A stretch of 43,481 nt of DNA from a virus (lineage: Duplodnaviria > Heunggongvirae > Uroviricota > Caudoviricetes). The DNA is taken from IMG/VR virus record IMGVR_UViG_2711768000_000011; one strand, given 5' to 3'. The translations under genes were made by a program, and so were the position numbers. Below are positions 2,794 to 18,498 of this stretch, one piece after another. How positions within the stretch are numbered: position 1 is the first letter of the stretch; the number at the start of each line of letters is the position of its first letter. The notes below the pieces were generated by a model, which was not told the DNA's origin, ran no database searches, and was given only the letters and a program-made list of their open reading frames with translations.

Positions 2794-5386
2794 TTGCATA
2801 TTCCTTAGCCCAGCGGGGCAGTGATAACGTCTTAATAGCTGGCCATTCATCGGTATTGAGGCAGTCAGCCAGGGTTCGCAGATTGCGGTGATATTCCAGC
2901 TGACCTGCCAGTTTTGCTTCTTCGCCCATCATGAAAATTTCAACCGGATAACGTCCGCATTCAATAGTTGTGCTGGCAACCAGAAAAACGAAAGTTGGCT
3001 GCACTCCAAACTGTGCTTCATAACCGTCACTGTAGAATGCATCCTGAACGTGATAGCGGTAGTCGTAATAAGCGGTTTTGAATCGTTGAATATCCGCCGT
3101 AGTTTTCACGTCCATGATCCAGTGAAATTCAGGGATAATTTTGTCCGGACGGCACCGACACAAAATTGCTGTTTCAGGATCTTCCCAGTAAATTGATGAT
3201 TCAGCGTGTCCGGCGCTTTCAACAAGCCATTGCCCCAGCGGCAAAGCCATAACGCTCTGATACATGAGTTCAATTTTCCGGCCTTCTTCGGCAGTGATAA
3301 CCGTTTTTCCTGTGCTTGCGCATTCCCTCAGAAACGCTTTCTCTTCTTCTTTTCCGGAGTTTGTCCGGCGGTTAAATTCAGGTGCTACGATAAAGCGGTT
3401 ACTGAATTCTTCCGGCTCAAGTACCCGGCAGTGGAAAGCGGTTCCTAAATCGAGCGTTTTTGTCTTTGTGGTGTCCACGGGGGCATTTTTACGCCACAAA
3501 TACAGTGCCGGAGTATCAGCAATGTCATCGAGCTGAGACTTACTGACACCGGGACCCGCGTGGTAATTCTCATTCGAAATTCCGTAATAAATACCTGGCT
3601 CTATGTCTTCTACGATTACGGGATCTGCGACTTCGCCAGTTTCATCACTGCAATCGCGATGCGGATCGCTGCCAGCATTCTCATTGTGCGGATGTTCAGC
3701 GCCTTCCATTTCCTCCGGATCATTTTCCTTAGCTTCAACCTGACTCTCTTCATCGAATGTTTCCTGGTATGTTGCGTCGCCCATCACCGCACCACAGTCA
3801 GGGCAGTTATCCCCGCCAGTCTGGCCGCAGGCATTGCAGGCTATTTCCGGTTCCTGTTGCACTACTGGCTCAGGTTGATTCATATCCGGGCTGGTTTTTT
3901 CCGTTTCTGGCTGGTTCTGGTACACACAATCGCGAGTCTGGATCCCCTTTACCCATTTCGGATCGTTCGGGTCGCTAATTCCGTCAACAAATTCACCACG
4001 TGATGCAGCAAGCAATTTATCGGCATCGACAGGATTTTTTGATGGAATGTTTTTCCGGGCTTCATGGAGTTCTGCCCGCAGTTCCTGATATTTCGCATCA
4101 ACAGAATTTACCTGTGACTGAGCATCCAGCGGCTGCGTGTCCTGATGATGTTCAGTTGCGTCCGGTTCCATTGTTTCAGCCTCTCCCTGTTCAACTGCCG
4201 TTGTTCCAGATGGTTGCGGTTTTTCTTCATCATCCTGTTTTCCTTCTTCTGTTACTCGCTGCGGCATCGGGGCAGAGGAGCGACCGCAGGCAATATCCAC
4301 GATTTCCGGATCAGGGTTGGCATGATCGGTTTCAGTCAGTACTTTGTTCAGATATTCAGTGACGTGCGCGGGGATGACCTCGATCCCAATTGGTGCTTCT
4401 TTTACGGACGCAACCACGATGGCGCGGGAATAATCCAGCCCGCCAGGCATGGTGATGAATTTGTCGCGGAAAACAGAAAAGGGCGGTTTATTTTCAGCGA
4501 TAATTTCCTCAATGCGTTTAGCGTGTGCCGGATGAAGGTTATAGATGTCCAGATCCATTGAACGGGCCAGTACGCCAGTGGCTACGTCCCGCGCCAGTGA
4601 CGTCAGATCGTGTACGAAACCTTCGCCGCGATCGGTGAGGTTTCCGCCGCCAGCATTAGCACCGGAAGCCGTGCGAGTGATGTGTGAAACACGATTACCC
4701 TTCATCCACTCTTTTGTCAGCAGTCCTCGATCGGTGTAGTCAGCGTTCAGGTATGCTTCGAAAAAAGCAGTTATCAGTCCCAGGTTTGAATTACCAGGAT
4801 TAGGGAAAACTTTGTCAGTGTCACGAACCAGTTTGTGGAGTTCGCGAATTTCCAGCGGGTCGAGCAGGCTGGTTTTGTGGGAAACAGCCAGGGCAGTAAC
4901 AGCCGGTAGTTCTTCAGCCCGAGCAATGTGTAATGCCTGGAGTCCGTCGCGTGAAACGTGCGTTACCGGTTTTTCGCTGCCGTGTTGAGCAAGCCAACGA
5001 ATGGGCAGTTCCTGGCCAGAAATTGGGAGTAGCATATTCTCCTCAATCTCAGTCATGTCTTCGCCGTTGACGTTGGTATTGCCTTGATAGTGAGCGTTGT
5101 CTGGTGCTGCTCCCGGTTTTAGTTCCCATGTCATGGAGTCTTTGCTGAGTTGATAGCGTTCACTCCAGGTAAAATCGATCTCACCTTCAGCGGGCAGGTC
5201 ATTAACGACAGGAAAATTCGTGGCAACAGCTTTAAAATAGCTGCTCAGTTTTTTACCTGACTTAACGATCAGGTAGTCCAGAGTGGCACAGGTCGATTCA
5301 AAATCGTTGCTTGCCCACAGGACGACGTCAGGTTCACCGGATGATTTTTTCGCTTTCCGTAACAGGAAGAGTGGTTTTGTGCTCAT
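2786..5386 (-). CDS. recE: Exodeoxyribonuclease VIII RecE, 866 aa
   Basis: 866-aa ORF with acidic/proline-rich central region and C-terminal nuclease domain. Length and sequence recognised as Rac RecE; translationally coupled to recT. Confidence 0.9.
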
Positions 5387-5457
5387 TGTTTTTTAACCTC
5401 AACTCAGATTAAAATTCGTTTTGTTCAGTGAATGATCTTGCCGGATACACACTGTTC

Positions 5458-5482
5458 ATAGCCTGCGCCATACGCAGGCTAT
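5458..5482 (+). terminator. Hairpin ATAGCCTGCG-ccaua-CGCAGGCTAT followed by TTCTTTC on the + strand, in the racC-recE spacer
   Basis: 10-bp perfect inverted repeat with a 5-nt loop. The T-rich tail is on the + strand only, although the flanking genes are on the minus strand. Confidence 0.35.
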
Positions 5483-5487
5483 TTCTT

Positions 5488-5763
5488 TCAGATTTCACCT
5501 TTTAATTTCATTGCAATTAGAGTTGCCAGAAATTCGGCTTTTTTTTCTGCGGGCAGATTCTTTCCGATATGCACCAGGCACATTTTTTTGACACCTTCAT
5601 CAAGTGTTTTTACGTTGCCTGATGGACCATCGATATCAACCACAGTGAATGGGGTTTCTTTATTTTCTGTTTTAATTACGTAGCCAATGCGCTTTCCTTC
5701 CAGATTCACCTCGTGAACAATGTCATCGGTAGTTACAACAGTGGCTTCATAATTGGTAATCAT
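5488..5763 (-). CDS. racC: RacC, 91 aa
   Basis: From ATG 5763 (MITNYEATVVTTDDIV...) preceded by AAGGAG. Length matches Rac RacC. The track ORF has a 16-codon upstream extension. Confidence 0.8.
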   Translation of the reverse strand: MITNYEATVVTTDDIVHEVNLEGKRIGYVIKTENKETPFTVVDIDGPSGNVKTLDEGVKKMCLVHIGKNLPAEKKAEFLATLIAMKLKGEI

Positions 5764-5837: not shown

Positions 5838-6008
5838 TTAAAGTTCATGTGCCATCTGGTCTTTTTCGGCACAAGCTTCACTGCAATATTTTCTCGGTTC
5901 GTCTTTTGATAAAATCCCGTGCATGAAGTGAAGCATTCTTTCAATAGCTTTGCTTTCTTCAACGTCTTTTTTGCAAAGGTGGTAAGCACATTTTATTTTC
6001 TTAGTCAT
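5838..6008 (-). CDS. ydaE: YdaE-like zinc-binding small protein, 56 aa
   Basis: Hand translation: [59 protein letters not shown] overlaps the kilR stop (TGATG). Missing from the ORF track because it is under 60 aa. Confidence 0.75.
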   Translation of the reverse strand: MTKKIKCAYHLCKKDVEESKAIERMLHFMHGILSKDEPRKYCSEACAEKDQMAHEL

Positions 6009-6229
6009 CACCATGACTCCGCCTTTACAGGTAAACCATCACGACCGAGGAAGACTTTAATCATGCGGTCAGTAATGCATGTTTTTGTGGTCAGGTTACG
6101 AATATATAGTTTTCGCTTTTTAATATTGTTTGCCGAGGCAATATATGTCCGGCCTTCATGAAGAACATAATCGCCAGGAGTCACACACTGACGTGGTATT
6201 TCATCAGTTCCGAAGTGATGTGCAATCAT
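6008..6229 (-). CDS. kilR: KilR cell-division (FtsZ) inhibitor, 73 aa
   Basis: From second ATG ([15 protein letters not shown]...) with GGAG 7 nt upstream. 73 aa matches Rac KilR. Confidence 0.8.
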
Positions 6230-6410
6230 AATTATCTCCATTTTTACAAATGAACTTTGTTGATGCGGTGCCTGGTGCCTCCAGGTGACTGCAACCAGTT
6301 AACAATTACAGTCGGCTTTCCCACCCAAACCAATAAGGACTAACATGACTTTTAACTGTGCCACGTGCGCTTAGCCGCATTCACCGCATCACAAAATTCA
6401 CTTTAAAAAG

Positions 6411-6452
6411 GGCGGACATCAGCCGAACTTCAAGAAAAAAACTGATGCCGCC
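6411..6452 (-). terminator. Stem-loop (GGCGGCATCAG...CTGATGTCCGCC) followed by CTTTTT on the minus strand, upstream of kilR
   Basis: 11-12 bp imperfect inverted repeat with a large loop; the T-run is on the minus strand only. Candidate leftward terminator or attenuator. Confidence 0.35.
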
Positions 6453-6670
6453 AGGACTACACACAGCAATGTCGTTATTTACAACCGGAGGCGCACTCCC
6501 ACCATTTAAATTTAACAGACAAGACCGACTCTTTATGGATATCGGAAATGCGCCTTCGTGTTGTGCCCGGTTTTATTTCACCACCTCCGGGCTTCGGTGG
6601 TCTCGGCTATACCCCTACAGCGAGAGCTTGTGTTAACATTTCAATACCCTTACAGTTGAGAGTTATTGAT

Positions 6671-7159
6671 ATGTTGGATGTATTTACTCCATTGTTGAAA
6701 CTTTTTGCTAACGAGCCACTCGAAATACTTATGTATACGATTATCATTTTTGGTCTCACTCTCTGGCTGATACCGAAAGAGTTTACTGTCGCATTCAATG
6801 CTTATACTGAAATACCTTGGCTCTTTCAGATTATCGTTTTTGCCTTTTCTTTCGTGGTCGCCATTTCCTTCTCAAGATTGCGAGCACATATTCAAAAGCA
6901 TTATTCATTACTACCAGAGCAACGAGTATTGCTTCGTTTATCTGAGAAAGAAATCGCTGTATTTAAAGATTTCCTTAAAACAGGAAATCTTATTATCACT
7001 TCTCCTTGCCGTAACCCGGTTATGAAAAAATTAGAACGGAAGGGCATCATTCAACATCAGAGTGATAGCGCAAACTGTTCTTATTATCTCGTCACCGAAA
7101 AATACTCCCATTTTATGAAGTTATTCTGGAACAGCAGGAGTAGACGTTTTAATCGTTAG
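6671..7159 (+). CDS. sieB: Superinfection exclusion protein SieB, 162 aa
   Basis: From ATG 6671 (MLDVFTPLLKLFANEPLE...), with two hydrophobic segments. 162 aa as recalled for SieB. The track ORF carries a 41-codon 5' extension. Confidence 0.8.
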   Translation: MLDVFTPLLKLFANEPLEILMYTIIIFGLTLWLIPKEFTVAFNAYTEIPWLFQIIVFAFSFVVAISFSRLRAHIQKHYSLLPEQRVLLRLSEKEIAVFKDFLKTGNLIITSPCRNPVMKKLERKGIIQHQSDSANCSYYLVTEKYSHFMKLFWNSRSRRFNR

Positions 7160-9795: not shown

Positions 9796-10226
9796 ATGAA
9801 AAATATTGCGACAGGCGACGTTCTTGAACGTATCCGCAGACTGGCCCCGTCACATGTAACCGCGCCATTCAAGACGGTAGCGGAGTGGCGCGAGTGGCAA
9901 CTTTCCGAAGGCCAGAAACGTTGTGAGGAGATCAACCGTCAGAATCGTCAGTTGCGGGTGGAAAAAATTCTGAATCGCTCTGGCATCCAGCCATTGCACC
10001 GCAAATGCTCGTTTTCGAATTACCAGGTGCAGAACGAAGCGCAGCGATACGCGTTGAGTCAGGCGAAATCCATCGCTGATGAACTGATGACCGGGTGTAC
10101 AAATTTTGCGTTCAGCGGAAAACCTGGTACCGGGAAGAACCACTTAGCGGCAGCTATCGGGAATCGCCTGCTGAAAGACGGTCAGACAGTGATTGTGGTT
10201 ACCGTGGCTGATGTTATGAGTGCCCT
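9796..10226 (+). CDS. ydaV: DnaC-like helicase loader (IstB-type AAA+), 3' end lost in assembly gap
   Basis: Walker A GKPGTGKNHLAAAIG. The ORF runs into the N-run at 10227. The track's 422-aa ORF is an artefactual fusion across the gap. Confidence 0.75.
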
Positions 10227-10278
10227 NNNNNNNNNNNNNNNNNNNNNNNNNNNNNNNNNNNNNNNNNNNNNNNNNNNN
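10227..10278. other. Assembly gap (52 N)
   Basis: Run of N characters. Confidence 1.
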
Positions 10279-10302
10279 AATTTTTACCGGGAGGAAATTT
10301 TT

Positions 10303-11064
10303 ATGGAGACTGTTTTTGACGCACTGAAAGCAATGGGAAAAGCCACATCCATAGAACTTGCTGCGCGACTTGATATCAGTCGTGAAGAAGTGCTGAACGA
10401 ACTATGGGAACTGAAAAAAGCTGGTTTCGTTGATAAAAGCGCGTACACCTGGCGTGTGGCTGATAACAACGTTCAGCAGGAACAGCCAATGCAGGCAGAA
10501 CTGCCGGAAGAAACCACCACGGCAACTGTAGTGAAAATCTCAGAGTGCGATTTAACCGCGACGATTGAACAACGCGGACCACAAACGGCGGATGAACTGG
10601 CTACGCTGTTCGGTACAACATCCCGCAAAGTTGCTTCAACGCTGGCAATGGCAATCAGCAAAGGACGCCTGATTCGCGTAAACCAGAACAGTAAATTTCG
10701 TTACTGCATGCCGGGCGATAATTTACCAGCAGAGCCGAAAGCTGCATCGGTAGCGGAAACTGATGGTAAAGCCTTTCCTCAGCCAGCCGGTGTTGCGTTA
10801 CCAGTACAGGAAGCGGCAACACAGGAAGATATTAAAACAGAAACTGTGGCGGACATTGTGCAGTCGCTGCCATCGTTTACTGAAACGCAAGCGGATGACC
10901 TAGTTTTACCATCGCTGCATATGGCAAACCGCGAACTGCGTCGGGCGAAAAATCATGTCCAGAAGTGGGAGCGAGTCTGCGCCGCGCTGCGGGAGCTGAA
11001 CAAGCACCGGGATATTGTCCGACAGATTGTCGATTCCTCCAGTCGTATTGTGTCGGAAAAGTGA
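10303..11064 (+). CDS. Hypothetical protein with two winged-helix-like segments and a C-terminal coiled coil, 253 aa
   Basis: ATG 10303 with GGGAGG SD just after the gap. Function unknown. Confidence 0.6.
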
Positions 11065-11079
11065 TTGCCGGAGGCGCTT

Positions 11080-11496
11080 ATGGCAAAAGTTTTTACACAG
11101 GAAGAGCGTGAAAAAATTAAGGAGCAGGTTGTTGAGTTGGTACGCCAGAGTGGGCGCGAGACGTTAAGGCAACTGGAGGCCAAGACAGGTGCGACAAGAT
11201 ATCTGATGAGCATTCTTGCCAGAGAGTTGGTTGCCAGTGGCGATGTATACAACTCTGGCTATGGGTTATTCCCGTCTGAACAGGCTCGTAAGGATTGGAA
11301 AAACGCCCGCAAAAAACTATCCAGGGCAAAGGTGAAAAAAACGGTTGTGGTTGATCCTGACCTTATCTGGTCATTACCAGACGGAGAAATACGCCGCTAT
11401 GACAGGCGTCAGAACATAATCTGTCGCGAGTGCCGGAAGAGTGAAGTTATGAAACGTGTACTGGCATTTTATCAAGGAAATCTTCGGTATTTATAG
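11080..11496 (+). CDS. Hypothetical basic protein, about 138 aa
   Basis: ATG 11080 preceded by GGAGG. Contains CxxC (ICRECRK). The track start 11065 overlaps the previous stop. Confidence 0.55.
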   Translation: MAKVFTQEEREKIKEQVVELVRQSGRETLRQLEAKTGATRYLMSILARELVASGDVYNSGYGLFPSEQARKDWKNARKKLSRAKVKKTVVVDPDLIWSLPDGEIRRYDRRQNIICRECRKSEVMKRVLAFYQGNLRYL

Positions 11497-11634
11497 ACGT
11501 TACTAGATCAAAGAGCATTAGTTCATATGTAAATTGACATTTTTCTGGCACAGGGGAGAGCTAGCGTGGTTGTCCGCTTTGTGCCAATAGCGGACATTGC
11601 TGGCTCATGGTATGTTAGTTTAAGGAGGCAGGTT

Positions 11635-12657
11635 ATGCCCTGTATTTCGCTGTGGTATAATAGTTGCGCAATTGATACAAGGGAGCGTTACATCGTGAAA
11701 ATTGTTTTCGAGGTTAATGGAAAGAAAGTTCCACTAAAATCTTTAAAATACATAAGCAAAAAAGATCAACTCGAAGTAATGAAAAACTGGTTCTTTGAAA
11801 ACTTTGAAGATCCGGCAAATGCTTGTCCGTATGAAAGTAGAGAAGGTGGCTATGCTTACATATATGGCGGGCCGTATGATGCGAGCGAAGAACTACAATC
11901 CATCTTCGGTCAATATGTTAAATCTGAGTATATTGAGGAATTAGTAGATGAATTACAAACACAATGTTTTGACTGGTCTGGAAACTCAAATAATATAGAT
12001 GATTGGTACGATGATGATATCTACGACGCTGTAACGTCTTCCGGTAATCCGTATTTAAAATTCATTGATAATATCGATAAAATAAAAAAACTTGCAAAAG
12101 ATAAAACTGAACAACAGCAAAAAAACCACTTGCTTAGTTTGCTCTACACGAATGTTATTACAGCTTTGGAAACGCTTTATGTTGAGCTATTCATTAATTC
12201 TATAGAGAAAGATGATGTCTACATAGCCAATTGTATAGAAAAAGGTAAGACTGAATTTAAAGTAAGCAAAGATATTGCTGCGTTGCCTTTCAAGGGTGAA
12301 CCCATCGAGAAAATTAGGGGAGAGCTAATCAGGTCAATCAAGGAACACTTGATCAGTGCAAGCTGGCATAGCACTAAAAAGGTAATCGACCGCTATGAAG
12401 CTACATTCGATATAAAAGTACAAAAAGACTGTCCGATAGAAGCTATTGAATTGGCAACCCTCAATCGAAATCACTTAGTGCATCGTGGTGGAAAGGATAA
12501 AGAAGGGAACCTCGTAGTGATTACAGACCAGGATCTTGAAACGCTGATTGAAAATGCATCGAACCTGGCAATTATGCTCTACAACAGTTTAAATGTAGCA
12601 ACGAATAAAACCACCATTTTGCAACCAGATGACAAACCGTTCATTCATGAATTTTAA
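11635..12657 (+). CDS. Cassette gene A: hypothetical low-GC protein with an Rx4H (HEPN-like) motif RNHLVH
   Basis: Start ambiguous: ATG 11635 with AAGGAGG SD, or GTG 11695 with GGGAG SD. Coding region is about 35% GC. Acidic N-terminal half and helical C-terminal half. No recognisable phage function. Confidence 0.7.
   Translation: MPCISLWYNSCAIDTRERYIVKIVFEVNGKKVPLKSLKYISKKDQLEVMKNWFFENFEDPANACPYESREGGYAYIYGGPYDASEELQSIFGQYVKSEYIEELVDELQTQCFDWSGNSNNIDDWYDDDIYDAVTSSGNPYLKFIDNIDKIKKLAKDKTEQQQKNHLLSLLYTNVITALETLYVELFINSIEKDDVYIANCIEKGKTEFKVSKDIAALPFKGEPIEKIRGELIRSIKEHLISASWHSTKKVIDRYEATFDIKVQKDCPIEAIELATLNRNHLVHRGGKDKEGNLVVITDQDLETLIENASNLAIMLYNSLNVATNKTTILQPDDKPFIHEF
11653..11661 (+). promoter_or_regulatory. 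Candidate extended -10 (TGgTATAAT) upstream of or within the start of cassette gene A
   Basis: Motif seen directly; a perfect TTGACA lies at 11534-11539. Conflicts with the ATG 11635 start, so either the promoter or that start is wrong. Confidence 0.3.
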
Positions 12658-12672
12658 TAGCGCAGGTCATAC

Positions 12673-13674
12673 ATGGATATTCGCACACGAAAGACAAAAT
12701 TTTTAGAGTCGTTAGATTCAACTGAAGTGATACGCAAAGCAGTAAGTCTCGCTATAGATTGCATTATTGATAATCATAATAGTAATGAAGATACCCCCTT
12801 AGTTATTACCAGCTATGATGATCTCTGTAGAATCCAGGTGCTAAATTATGTACAGGAGTTTTGCGAAGCTGCATTCCCTGATATGGATGAATATTACTTT
12901 AGTCCTAACATACTTCGCATCAACGGCAAGACTAGTGAAGAAGCTTGTATTAACTTAATTAAACTCTTAAGAAGTACAAAAGGCATGCTATTCTGGTCCG
13001 ATGCCCCATCGTGGTTCGCTAGCCTCCCCGACGGATTATTCCATGTTGTTAACATTGATCAAAAAATCGTTACTCGCGGCCTTAATAAGAAAAACTCTAA
13101 GCCGACAATAATCAATAAAGATTACAGTGTAGATACACTACTATCAGAGCTATTTTTGAATGGCGCACACATGGAGCAACCCAACGTACACAACGTTTCT
13201 GAGGGAAACATGAAGTTCTATGATGAATGCCATGCTGGATTAATCAGACCAATACCCGCTCCAATAGGCGCGTCATACGATGAAGAGATCACAATTAATT
13301 CTCCAGATTGGCAAAAGCTCGCGTGTGTAGCTTTACGCCGCTATCAGTCGAAGGAATGTCATGACGGAATGCAATGGGATACAACCGATCATGGTTGGAC
13401 TGATGTAATCGCGTATCCATTCGTCGAAGAAATACAATCAATGGATAATAGTGGTTATCGACAATGTTTAGTTGGGCTGGTCACAATAAACAATTCAAAT
13501 GCAAATTCTCCGTACCTATCTACCGTTTGGATACATCCATTTTATCGCAGGAGAGGGTTATTAAGTAAGTTATGGCCAAAATTACAAGAGTTATATGGAA
13601 GTAACTTCGAAATTGAGCGACCTAATGAAAATATGAAAGCATTTCTGAAAAGTGCGAAACACGCAGATTACTAA
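12673..13674 (+). CDS. Cassette gene B: hypothetical low-GC protein, 333 aa, with a weak GNAT-like motif near the C-terminus
   Basis: Starts 15 nt after gene A stop, so likely co-transcribed. C-terminal LVGLVTI...HPFYRRRGLLSKLW resembles a GNAT beta-strand plus motif A, non-canonically. No recognisable phage function. Confidence 0.7.
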   Translation: MDIRTRKTKFLESLDSTEVIRKAVSLAIDCIIDNHNSNEDTPLVITSYDDLCRIQVLNYVQEFCEAAFPDMDEYYFSPNILRINGKTSEEACINLIKLLRSTKGMLFWSDAPSWFASLPDGLFHVVNIDQKIVTRGLNKKNSKPTIINKDYSVDTLLSELFLNGAHMEQPNVHNVSEGNMKFYDECHAGLIRPIPAPIGASYDEEITINSPDWQKLACVALRRYQSKECHDGMQWDTTDHGWTDVIAYPFVEEIQSMDNSGYRQCLVGLVTINNSNANSPYLSTVWIHPFYRRRGLLSKLWPKLQELYGSNFEIERPNENMKAFLKSAKHADY

Positions 13675-14235
13675 TTTATGAATCAGTCTGTGGAGTTAGG
13701 GTTGGTGTGAACAAGTAGGGTAAGAGCCTCAACGTGATGCTATGCCGACCTGCTCCCTGAGAATTCACACAGAAGGCTGCTAGCAATGTCTGCAGATCGC
13801 TCAAAGCGGACTAAAATGTTGGCTTGTTTCTGACTTAGAGCATTTAAGGAAGTGCTGGTGGTGACTGGTTGTTGTGTTCCATTTCTACAGAATAAAATCA
13901 CAGAAACTATACCCAATAGTTGTATTGAATCACTGACGAGACAGCCTCATATTTATCAGGACTGGTGTGCGTCTAATACAGGGGGTTGTCGTGCTGGTTC
14001 TCAAATGTGCGCTGGCTATTGCGGCTGTAATGGCAATTTATTGTCTTGCTGTTGTTCTTATGGAGCGGCTTTCTGATTGATTACATACTGGCTAGAAAAA
14101 AGGTGTTACCTTGGTTTATCTTTGTCCGGCAAGGTGCGCTCATTAATCTTAAGTAAATTTATTGCTCAAGTATTCAGATTACTTCTTATGGTTGAAGTCT
14201 CCTGTCAATGTAGAACCAATATATTTACAAAAATG

Positions 14236-14265
14236 AGACCCGTCGGGGATAGCCCTGCCGGGTCT
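14236..14265 (-). terminator. Rho-independent terminator for the YeaR-like gene
   Basis: AGACCCG ... CGGGTCT 7-bp stem, followed on the minus strand by CATTTTTG, immediately 3' of the gene stop. Confidence 0.55.
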
Positions 14266-14294
14266 GACTGTTAAAGCATTTTTAATATGATCAT

Positions 14295-14633
14295 CTATTT
14301 TTTGGTGCTATAGACTTTTTCGCCCGAAAAGTCTGGAGCGACCCAAAAGTTAATATTAAACTGAGCATCATCGCTTAGTTCAACACGGTGCCAGTATTGT
14401 GGTGGGCTTGTTGCAAAAGCGCCAGCATTAATGACTACTTTTATCTCCGGTTCAGTAGCATTCTCATCAGTAAAACCATAATATGTTACAGTGCCTTCCA
14501 TTACGCACAACTGCCCAAAAACACCTGCTGCTGTATTATGATGTGTTAATAACGCTGAAGGTACGTTCTCTTTTGTGAAGAACGGAGTTGAGCGTTTGAT
14601 TACCCAATCTTTAGGAATTCTCTTGTGTGTCAT
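14295..14633 (-). CDS. YeaR-like DUF1971 (cupin-like) protein, 112 aa
   Basis: ATG 14633 preceded by GGAGGAGG. Pattern RSTPF...G...V..G.V.YYGF.DE...EP...V.....FA..PP..WH......FNI.F.V.P matches recalled E. coli YeaR. Transcribed opposite to flanking phage genes. Confidence 0.65.
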   Translation of the reverse strand: MTHKRIPKDWVIKRSTPFFTKENVPSALLTHHNTAAGVFGQLCVMEGTVTYYGFTDENATEPEIKVVINAGAFATSPPQYWHRVELSDDAQFNINFWVAPDFSGEKVYSTKK

Positions 14634-15446
14634 AACCACCTCCTCCAAAACATGCATTAAAAATGCATCTTTTGGAGGGTTATGTCAAGCTGTTATGAAA
14701 CACATAATTGATATGTTGATTAGAGGAGAAGATAGAATAAATATGGTTGTTTTTCGTATAACTATTTGTTTTACTTTTAGTTTATGCATTCTGTGTGTTA
14801 GGAATAAGTTATTAAAGTTTAATCAAAAAATCTCGATGTAGTCCACATAGATTACTGTTACTGAACCTTATTGTGTGTATTAGTTGTGTTCTGAAATTTC
14901 AGCTTAATTATTTATGATGTATTTTTTAACGATAAATATTTTCCCAGGATACCTTTACTGTGTATATAAATAAATTATATACGCATAAATAATGTAAAGG
15001 CGTCCTTTTAGATATATCTTATCAAATGTTAATGACTTGAGTGGGAAATATGATTCCAGCAACTTATCATGTGGCTACTTTATAAAAATAATGCCCATAT
15101 AAAACAACAAGCGAAAAGGATTACGGATAAAAAAGGAGCGAGATGTGCGAACTTGTTATTTTCCATGTTTAACCACCTTAAATAATTGATGATGACGGGA
15201 TGATTGCATCTGTAATGCTTTTATTGAAATGTTATGATAAAAAAGAACTTTTGCATAACATTAAAATGTAATTTATCTAATCGTTTTTAATAATAAGTGT
15301 CGTATTTCTATCCTTGTACCAGCTATTTGATATGTAGTGTTTGTTCATGCTATGTGGGGCTTTACACCATAGCCAGTTTATTTATACTTTATTCGTCAGC
15401 CTGAACAACTGGCATCTGCTGCGCTGCGCCATCGAGAGATTGAGAA

Positions 15447-18348: not shown

Positions 18349-18498
18349 TATTTATTGTTTTGTAATAAACGGTTTCGGCTTAGGTTTGTTCTGACACAGC
18401 TACGGCACTGAGCTAAATTTAGCGGATAGTCAGCTCTGAGCCAGTGGCGGACGTAACAACTACTATTGCTGAGATTTTAATGGATTGAGGAGCAAGAA

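Follow-up and report, generated by a model that had tools for sequence, protein, structure and literature searches.

DS-33 in a Rac-like prophage: a HEPN effector gene and a GNAT-fold accessory gene in a probable mobile cassette with inverted-repeat ends

Introduction

The DefensePredictor study (Science 2026, PMC13092281) describes a two-gene anti-phage system, DS-33, whose genes DS-33A and DS-33B were cloned and plaque-tested. According to that source, DS-33 protects E. coli 100- to 100,000-fold against the phages T7, T3, Bas67 and Bas26. Here we analyze the same pair of genes, A and B, in a 43,481-nucleotide (nt) stretch of viral DNA (Caudoviricetes; IMG/VR record IMGVR_UViG_2711768000_000011), referred to below as the window. 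The two genes lie on the same (+) strand with a 15-bp spacer between them, in an insert of low G+C content (GC) 3' of a DUF977/Ren-like gene in a Rac-like prophage. A reading made from the letters of the window only (the sequence-only reading) had taken them for an uncharacterised two-component effector module; as a whole that interpretation is partly supported, and the observation on which it was built is confirmed. We read the locus, with good confidence, as a 2.24-kb mobile cargo cassette carrying DS-33, in which A is a sufficient HEPN effector and B is accessory.

Several other described systems resemble parts of the pair. The aRES proteins combine a RES domain with PF18870, stand alone in defence islands of Enterobacteria and protect E. 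coli through NAD+ depletion, with arrest of growth; their effector is a RES NADase that makes ADP-ribose-1''-phosphate (ADPR-1''-phosphate; bioRxiv 10.64898/2026.01.28.702374). Gene A shares this PF18870 domain at its N terminus and, like them, suffices on its own, but it carries a HEPN ribonuclease (RNase)-type domain and no RES, and is thus not an aRES member, the N-terminal domain being all that is common to the two. The RiboL-PSP-HEPN proteins PD-T4-2, PD-T4-5, PD-T7-3 (DARNA) and ApeA are likewise HEPN Rx4-6H nucleases of single- or two-gene anti-phage systems, and DARNA and ApeA cleave tRNA. In DARNA the HEPN domain is N-terminal and is followed by a Pds5-like C-terminal domain; gene A is rejected as DARNA because its domain order is the opposite.

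HepT-MNT (HEPN-MNT) toxin-antitoxin pairs differ from the locus in that the partner B has a GNAT fold, not that of a nucleotidyltransferase, and is dispensable (as the L289 allele), and in that about 115 amino acids (aa) of A form an additional N-terminal domain. Membership in this group is rejected on the GNAT-fold partner, the defence of the strain lacking it, and the solo occurrence of A homologues. GNAT acetyltransferases, including the tRNA-acetylating GNAT toxins, share their fold with the C-terminal 150 aa of B. B differs from them in having no sequence match to any solved GNAT, a non-canonical motif A and a unique 175-aa N-terminal domain, and from the GNAT toxins in that no DUF1778-type antitoxin gene accompanies it.

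Identity and Published Phenotype of the Pair

Gene A (11695-12657, + strand) encodes a protein identical to DS-33A (WP_014639476.1) at 320 of 320 residues, and gene B (12673-13674, + strand) encodes a 333-aa protein (WP_000354966.1) that agrees with DS-33B at 332 of 333. The sole difference is residue 289, which is the consensus proline in the window and leucine in the assayed clone. Gene order and the 15-bp spacing are also those of DS-33 in NZ_QOWT01000046.1 (6922-7884 and 7900-8901), and RefSeq labels DNA of 100% identity with WP_014639476.1. The correspondence was found through a RefSeq accession search of the supplements of PMC13092281, in which Table S6 lists WP_014639476.1 and WP_000354965.1 as DS-33, with defensive = TRUE and the working name "GNAT". 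The pair is DS-33 and is already known. A check of open reading frames (ORFs) agrees with the sequence-only reading on the two frames, their coordinates and their spacer; its word "uncharacterised" falls, since cloning and testing of these very proteins are reported in the 2026 paper.

The plaque data in Table S7 are given as log10 protection, with two replicates per phage (PMC13092281). Wild-type DS-33 scores 3.78/2.60 against T7, 3.30/2.40 against T3, 4.0/1.98 against Bas67, 5.0/5.9 against Bas26 and 0.77/0.08 against T5. When the GNAT gene is deleted, the corresponding values are 4.78/4.30, 3.30/3.30, 4.0/3.30, 5.0/4.9 and 1.73/0.55; protection is equal or somewhat stronger, except in the second Bas26 replicate. 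Deletion of the HEPN gene leaves 0.54 or less for all five phages, and the R258A substitution leaves 0.78 or less for all five in both replicates. These values show that A is necessary, that the arginine of its Rx4H motif is essential and that the assayed allele of B is dispensable. In PMC13092281 the results for R258A and for both deletion strains are found in the supplementary tables only, and the main text there carries neither the DS-33 name nor a mention of GNAT. The proposal that the locus is an anti-phage system is thus borne out by the tables (defensive = TRUE in Table S6, protection of 2-6 log in Table S7). The mutation of the Rx4H arginine that the sequence-only reading had suggested as a check is available in R258A, which abolishes protection.

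Gene A, a HEPN Protein

Gene A has an all-alpha HEPN fold, and HepT toxins are among its best structural matches. The N-terminal domain (about aa 20-100) belongs to PF18870 ("HEPN/RES N-terminal domain 1"), which is matched by 40 of 40 homologues (best E-value 1e-6) and appears in several precomputed annotations. The C-terminal half (about aa 120-308) is HEPN, and HEPN_RiboL-PSP (PF18735) is matched by 23 of the 40 homologues at E <= 0.01 (best 9.9e-10). The catalytic motif R258-N-H-L-V-H263 (Rx4H) is encoded at 12466-12483 on the + strand, exactly where it had been read; R258 and H263 are invariant across the 40 homologues, down to 26% identity, and so are E159 and W224-H225.

Searches of catalogues were less informative. 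PADLOC models gave no meaningful match to A or B, and those of known HEPN systems gave none to A at E <= 1, so the pair is not among the systems catalogued in 2023 and a check recommended earlier came out negative. NCBIfam returned nothing useful for the pair, and sequence searches of the PDB with profiles of A, of B and of the N-terminal domain of B gave chance-level matches only. The DS-33 authors linked DS-33A to PD-T4-2_B by HHblits (probability 96.1, coverage 0.55; PMC13092281). Neither A nor its homologues have a RES match in Pfam. Prophage ORFs whose similarity to A is confined to the N-terminal domain were searched for RES as well, and Pfam recognised PF18870 only; effector swapping to RES is therefore not shown in them.

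Distant relatives of the HEPN domain of A (L085, 5428-6591; L089; L099) have a different N-terminal domain, PF18871 (HEPN/Toprim N-terminal domain 1). They sit in prophage regions that also hold repeats of the L and R types described below.

Gene B, a GNAT-Fold Protein

The product of gene B consists of a unique N-terminal domain (aa 1-175) and a divergent GNAT-fold module (aa 180-333). A BFVD fold search with B returned GNATs only, and the fold occupies the C-terminal 150 or so residues. The Pfam model Acetyltransf_1 scores 19.9 bits against B of the window, with a cut-off of 20.7, and is matched by 16 of 42 B homologues at E <= 0.01 (best 6e-6). Both folds, HEPN in A and GNAT in B, are thus those that the sequence-only reading had suspected. 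Its likening of one stretch of B to GNAT motif A fares worse: the canonical Q/R-x-x-G-x-G/A is not kept in HPFYRRRGLL (residues 288-297), which reads R-R-R-G-L-L, and the glycine varies among homologues (RGERLL, RRKRKL, RRKQKL, RRQRRL and RRKNLL). Only H288, P289 and R292 are invariant in this stretch.

P289 is encoded by CCA at 13537-13539 (+ strand) and is invariant in the 42 homologues. It lies in an H-P-F-Y-R stretch that corresponds to the GNAT cofactor loop. The published DS-33B reads WIHLFYRR, whereas all 68 fetched copies read HPFYRR and none reads HLFYRR.

B is a small gammaproteobacterial family. When 1.84 billion representatives were searched exhaustively by profile, only about ten full-length members with both domains came up, together with stand-alone proteins of about 160 aa that match positions 180-330 and some ORFs with the N-terminal domain only. 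The family is under strong purifying constraint, with 34 invariant columns in the alignment of the 42 homologues. No relative of the N-terminal 175 residues was detected by sequence or fold; fusions of this domain to other effectors were sought, and it occurs only with the present GNAT module or alone.

Some E. coli contigs, the window not among them, encode a protein (P0148) in which the first 120 residues of a DnaC-like protein are joined to B from residue 134. DUF977, gene A and the beginning of B are lost in the underlying deletion. P0148 is rejected as a variant of B, being the product of this deletion, which joins B at residue 134 to the DnaC-like replication gene.

Separability of A and B

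The profiles of the two families were run over 99 fetched loci, and tblastn over a further set. The pair, with the 15-bp spacer, occurs in E. coli, in Serratia grimesii (A 98%, B 95% identity), in non-phage mobilisable elements of Aeromonas beside Thoeris, SIR2 and AbiE genes (A 86-87%, B 78-79%) and on one metagenomic contig (A 78%, B 74%). The gene upstream of the pair in Aeromonas (138 aa) is unrelated to DUF977, and DUF977 is for that reason rejected as a third component.

Each gene also occurs alone. Solo A is found adjoining sucCD (77% identity), in Dickeya (74%), where an integrase and a ParE/HTH pair adjoin it, in P2-like prophages between replication gene A and the portal gene (L041, L044), which is a documented P2 defence hotspot, and in Mu-like prophages, as well as adjoining integrases and Mrr genes. 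B is solo at 62-39% identity beside unrelated genes; a homologue at 68% is seen with no A, on a contig with only 525 bp upstream. In Rahnella and Enterobacter, where B is at 86% identity, a single internal deletion (window 11672-12594) removed A but spared the leader, the -10 element and 20 codons at the 3' end of A. These B-only derivatives (L010, 5816-7075; L110, 4817-6075; L111, 3593-4851) are equivalent to window 11571-11671 joined to 12594-13748. The identical junction is present in three genomic contexts and two genera, and the B-only cassette has therefore spread after the deletion.

The finding of A and B each alone indicates that each gene is viable and maintained without the other. 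Since, in addition, deletion of the GNAT gene leaves defence intact or slightly stronger, the locus is one HEPN effector with a separable accessory gene and not an obligate two-component system. The earlier idea of a two-component effector module is accordingly given up, solo homologues reaching 77% identity for A and 86% for B.

In the P2-like prophage L041, at the replication-portal hotspot, the solo A homologue lies beside an ApeA_NTD1 protein (4338-5696, minus strand, and 5860-6945). Two HEPN-associated defence-type genes are direct neighbours there.

How loose the association of A and B is can be read in more than one way. It is close to an even question whether they are two independent single-gene modules that share a vehicle, A being a complete defence and B having a function of its own, for example defence against phages beyond the tested panel, counter-defence or the modification of some molecule of host or phage. 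The B-only cassette, which arose by one deletion, kept its promoter and reached three contexts in two genera (the Enterobacter cluster has 142 member sequences), fits this explanation. So do the more distant solo B homologues beside unrelated genes, the stand-alone occurrence of both the GNAT-like half and the N-terminal domain, the constraint on B and the several unrelated genes that sister cassettes often hold. Yet B alone has no known phenotype, PADLOC does not recognise it and its solo loci are not obviously in defence islands, while A and B have co-diverged over 20-25% sequence change, which points to more than linkage by chance.

An obligate, toxin-antitoxin-like arrangement is unlikely. 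It would make A a HEPN toxin neutralised through acetylation by B, with infection lifting the block, in parallel to the AMPylation of HepT by MNT. The co-orientation, fixed spacer and co-divergence of the pair in Escherichia, Serratia, Aeromonas and the metagenomic copy are in its favor, as are the HepT toxins among the structural matches of A. In Table S7, protection against T7, T3, Bas67 and T5 is higher by 0-1.7 log once the GNAT gene is deleted, as expected if B dampens A, and the assayed allele carries P289L at an invariant residue, so that full B activity lies outside the published assay. The strain without the GNAT gene is, however, viable and fully defensive in those data, A homologues of up to 77% identity live without B in many contexts, and B persists and spreads without A. 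The motif A glycine is not conserved, which makes the use of acetyl-CoA by B uncertain. There is also no sign of an RNA antitoxin: over 11300-14400, Rfam (E <= 1) gave two sub-threshold chance matches, and tandem repeats were absent.

The Cassette and Its Ends

The cassette spans 11572-13811 (2.24 kb) and is bounded by conserved 30-nt inverted repeats. The left (L-type) repeat, at 11572-11601 on the + strand, was located by pattern search and blastn boundary and consists of a GTCCGC-N12-GCGGAC hairpin followed by ATTGCT. The right (R-type) repeat, at 13782-13811, was located by pattern search and reads GTCCGCTTTGAGCGATCTGCAGACATTGCT on the minus strand. Both follow the pattern of a GTCYGC-N12-GCRGAC hairpin and then an inward ATTGCT, with loops that differ between L and R; beyond the 30-nt core, imperfect similarity reaches up to about 75 nt. 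This pattern has exactly two matches in the window against none expected, and the left end has a DNA hairpin fold with z = -3.06. The blastn blocks common to unrelated contexts start at 11571/11572 and, in L020 and the Serratia locus L009, end at 13811; these positions are the outer edges of the repeats.

Of 5426 complete E. coli genomes, 205 have the cassette at >=99% identity. It is found in two or more prophage backbones, among them Rac at ttcA and a prophage adjoining ompW, and in both it lies directly 3' of the DUF977/Ren-like gene. K-12 Rac lacks it and has ydaW and then rzpR, as the sequence-only reading had stated, and it is absent from the deposited-phage collection that was searched. 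The view of the locus as horizontally acquired cargo is upheld. That A and B instead serve phage housekeeping or lysogeny control in the replication-nin region is hardly credible: they do sit between the replication and the nin/Q genes, and their PHROGs families (17908 and 16994) are of unknown function, but the low share of genomes and the different backbones, the absences just given and the copies in non-phage Aeromonas elements beside Thoeris and SIR2 genes speak against it, and the direct evidence of the DS-33 plaque data has already refuted it.

Other cargo has the same kind of ends. Phage Tritos and the S88 prophage share their backbone flanks, and between an L and an R end Tritos has a different cargo, an FRG-domain protein that matches PDC-S15. 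In a scan of IMG/VR, ends of this kind were detected in 104 stretches, including 56 L..R pairs of 28 cassette types (0.4-4.3 kb, GC 0.33-0.50); at least 28 cassette types are closed by R-type ends. Only matches with <=3 mismatches were used, as a search at 4 mismatches gave 48 matches in shuffled DNA and was too noisy. The cassettes are often arranged in arrays, in which an R end is followed after 18 bp by an L end. The cargo of these sister cassettes includes DRT (RT_UG17, 1e-155), DarT (8e-38) with DarG (2e-79), PD-T7-1 (3e-69) and PD-T7-5 (3e-35), PDC-S51 and PDC-M68A, DUF3800, ParA-like and ORC/CDC6-like proteins, and many proteins without a match.

A tentative model, which we consider somewhat doubtful as it stands, runs as follows. 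The cassette would be a member of a non-autonomous cargo family with asymmetric L/R hairpin inverted repeats of 30-75 bp, occurring singly or in head-to-tail arrays. Such cassettes would shuttle DS-33, DarTG, DRT UG17, PD-T7-1, PD-T7-5, PDC-S15 and many others between lambdoid prophages and islands of Enterobacterales. Movement could be driven by a dedicated enzyme acting in trans, or the short conserved ends could serve in recombination of the Red/RecET type. A search for the left and right flanks in direct junction, which would mark an empty site, found none in the 5426 E. coli genomes, so no target-site duplication can be read. The A-B pairs of Aeromonas and of the metagenomic contig are without these ends, and the gene pair is therefore older than the vehicle or independent of it. 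No description of repeat-bounded cassettes of this kind was found in the searchable literature.

An origin of the ends from enterobacterial repetitive intergenic consensus (ERIC) elements, or intergenic repeat units (IRU), was considered with the 127-bp ERIC consensus and rejected; two real ERIC copies (L221 and L222) share only words of 8-16 nt with the ends. A lone end-like sequence, GTCAGCTCTGAGCCAGTGGCGGACGT, with 2 mismatches to the end pattern, is present about 4.6 kb downstream at 18429-18454. It has the same relative position in L001 and in the viral contigs L159 and L187.

Start Site, Promoter and Surroundings

The ORF of gene A (+ strand) ends at 12657 and has possible starts at 11566, 11635 and 11695. 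The start at GTG 11695 is supported because the aligned MK(I/V)VF is the start of about 25 homologues, the PGAP/RefSeq product call (WP_014639476.1) has 320 aa, and the -10 element, which is the sole conserved promoter element, lies 3' of the alternative ATG at 11635.

The two promoter motifs named in the sequence-only reading, a TTGACA at 11534-11539 and an extended -10, TGgTATAAT, at 11653-11661 (+ strand), are both present, and the second is conserved. They are 114 nt apart and thus not one promoter, and the TTGACA falls outside the mobile unit. GTGrTAyAAT is invariant in six copies from five genera (Escherichia, Serratia, Aeromonas, Rahnella and Enterobacter), including the B-only copies from which A is deleted. 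From sequence and conservation the extended -10 is likely to be the cassette promoter. A scan for two-hexamer promoters found 9 against 8.9 expected from shuffles, which is no excess, and does not call the extended -10, so that its function is inferred from conservation alone.

GC is 0.51-0.53 at 10400-11200, 0.35-0.40 across 11600-13000 and 0.40-0.44 up to 13800. The drop that had marked the locus is real; it does not end with the cassette, GC being 0.28-0.43 over 13800-15400 and returning to 0.50 only near 15400. The interval 13812-15400 may be further cargo without bounding L or R ends. It holds a DUF1971 gene (14295-14657, minus strand), between the cassette and the next genes, DUF1367, DUF1364 and DUF1133, as annotated in the near-identical prophage of strain FORC_081. 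Its part at 14600-15400 is very AT-rich (GC 0.28-0.31).

On the other side, the replication ORF at 9796-11064 contains a masked run of 18 X residues (about 54 N) and reads as a DnaC-like N-terminal part with a DUF1627-like C-terminal part. The matching region in FORC_081 is annotated as three pseudogene fragments.

A Model for DS-33 Function

We propose that gene A is the effector and is sufficient alone, acting as a single-chain abortive-type HEPN ribonuclease that would use R258 and H263. Like that of other HEPN enzymes, its active site probably forms in a dimer and is composite. The PF18870 domain would most likely hold A off until infection and sense a phage cue, upon which active A would cut cellular or phage RNA and phage production would stop. 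Gene B would be co-transcribed with A from the conserved extended -10 promoter and may serve either as a mild brake on A or in an independent function. Intact B, with P289, might in particular be a GNAT-fold brake on the HEPN effector.

Several observations weigh against our reading of the locus, in which A is a sufficient effector and B is accessory. Ribonuclease activity and abortive infection are ascribed to A by its family membership, the DS-33 data of PMC13092281 being plaque counts. A of the window itself scores 22 bits (E 2e-4) against PF18870, below the cut-off of 27.4, and has no direct Pfam match to HEPN_RiboL-PSP at E <= 1. The published tests were made by plasmid expression in MG1655 (Table S6 gives 'pBAD' as TRUE, and the strains are named pCV1-GNAT; PMC13092281). 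The dispensability of B was measured on the P289L allele, which, the residue being invariant, may be weakened or crippled. Finally, the co-divergence of A and B (98/95, 87/79 and 78/74% identity) with the spacer fixed at 15 bp is compatible with a functional link.

Significance

For DS-33 as a defence system little is added here, since it was already validated. Three points are new beyond the literature found: the link of A to aRES through PF18870, the P289L difference in the assayed allele and the repeats at the cassette ends. In PMC13092281, so far as its text and tables were used here, no mention of PF18870 or of the cassette ends was met, and no search was aimed at them. As PF18870 is common to A and to the NAD+-depleting aRES, two unrelated effectors appear to be driven by a single sensor or regulatory domain. 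For intact B, a new way of restraining a HEPN nuclease is among the possible roles. The inverted-repeat ends, in turn, may account for the exchange of defence genes in lambdoid prophages at the replication-nin slot.

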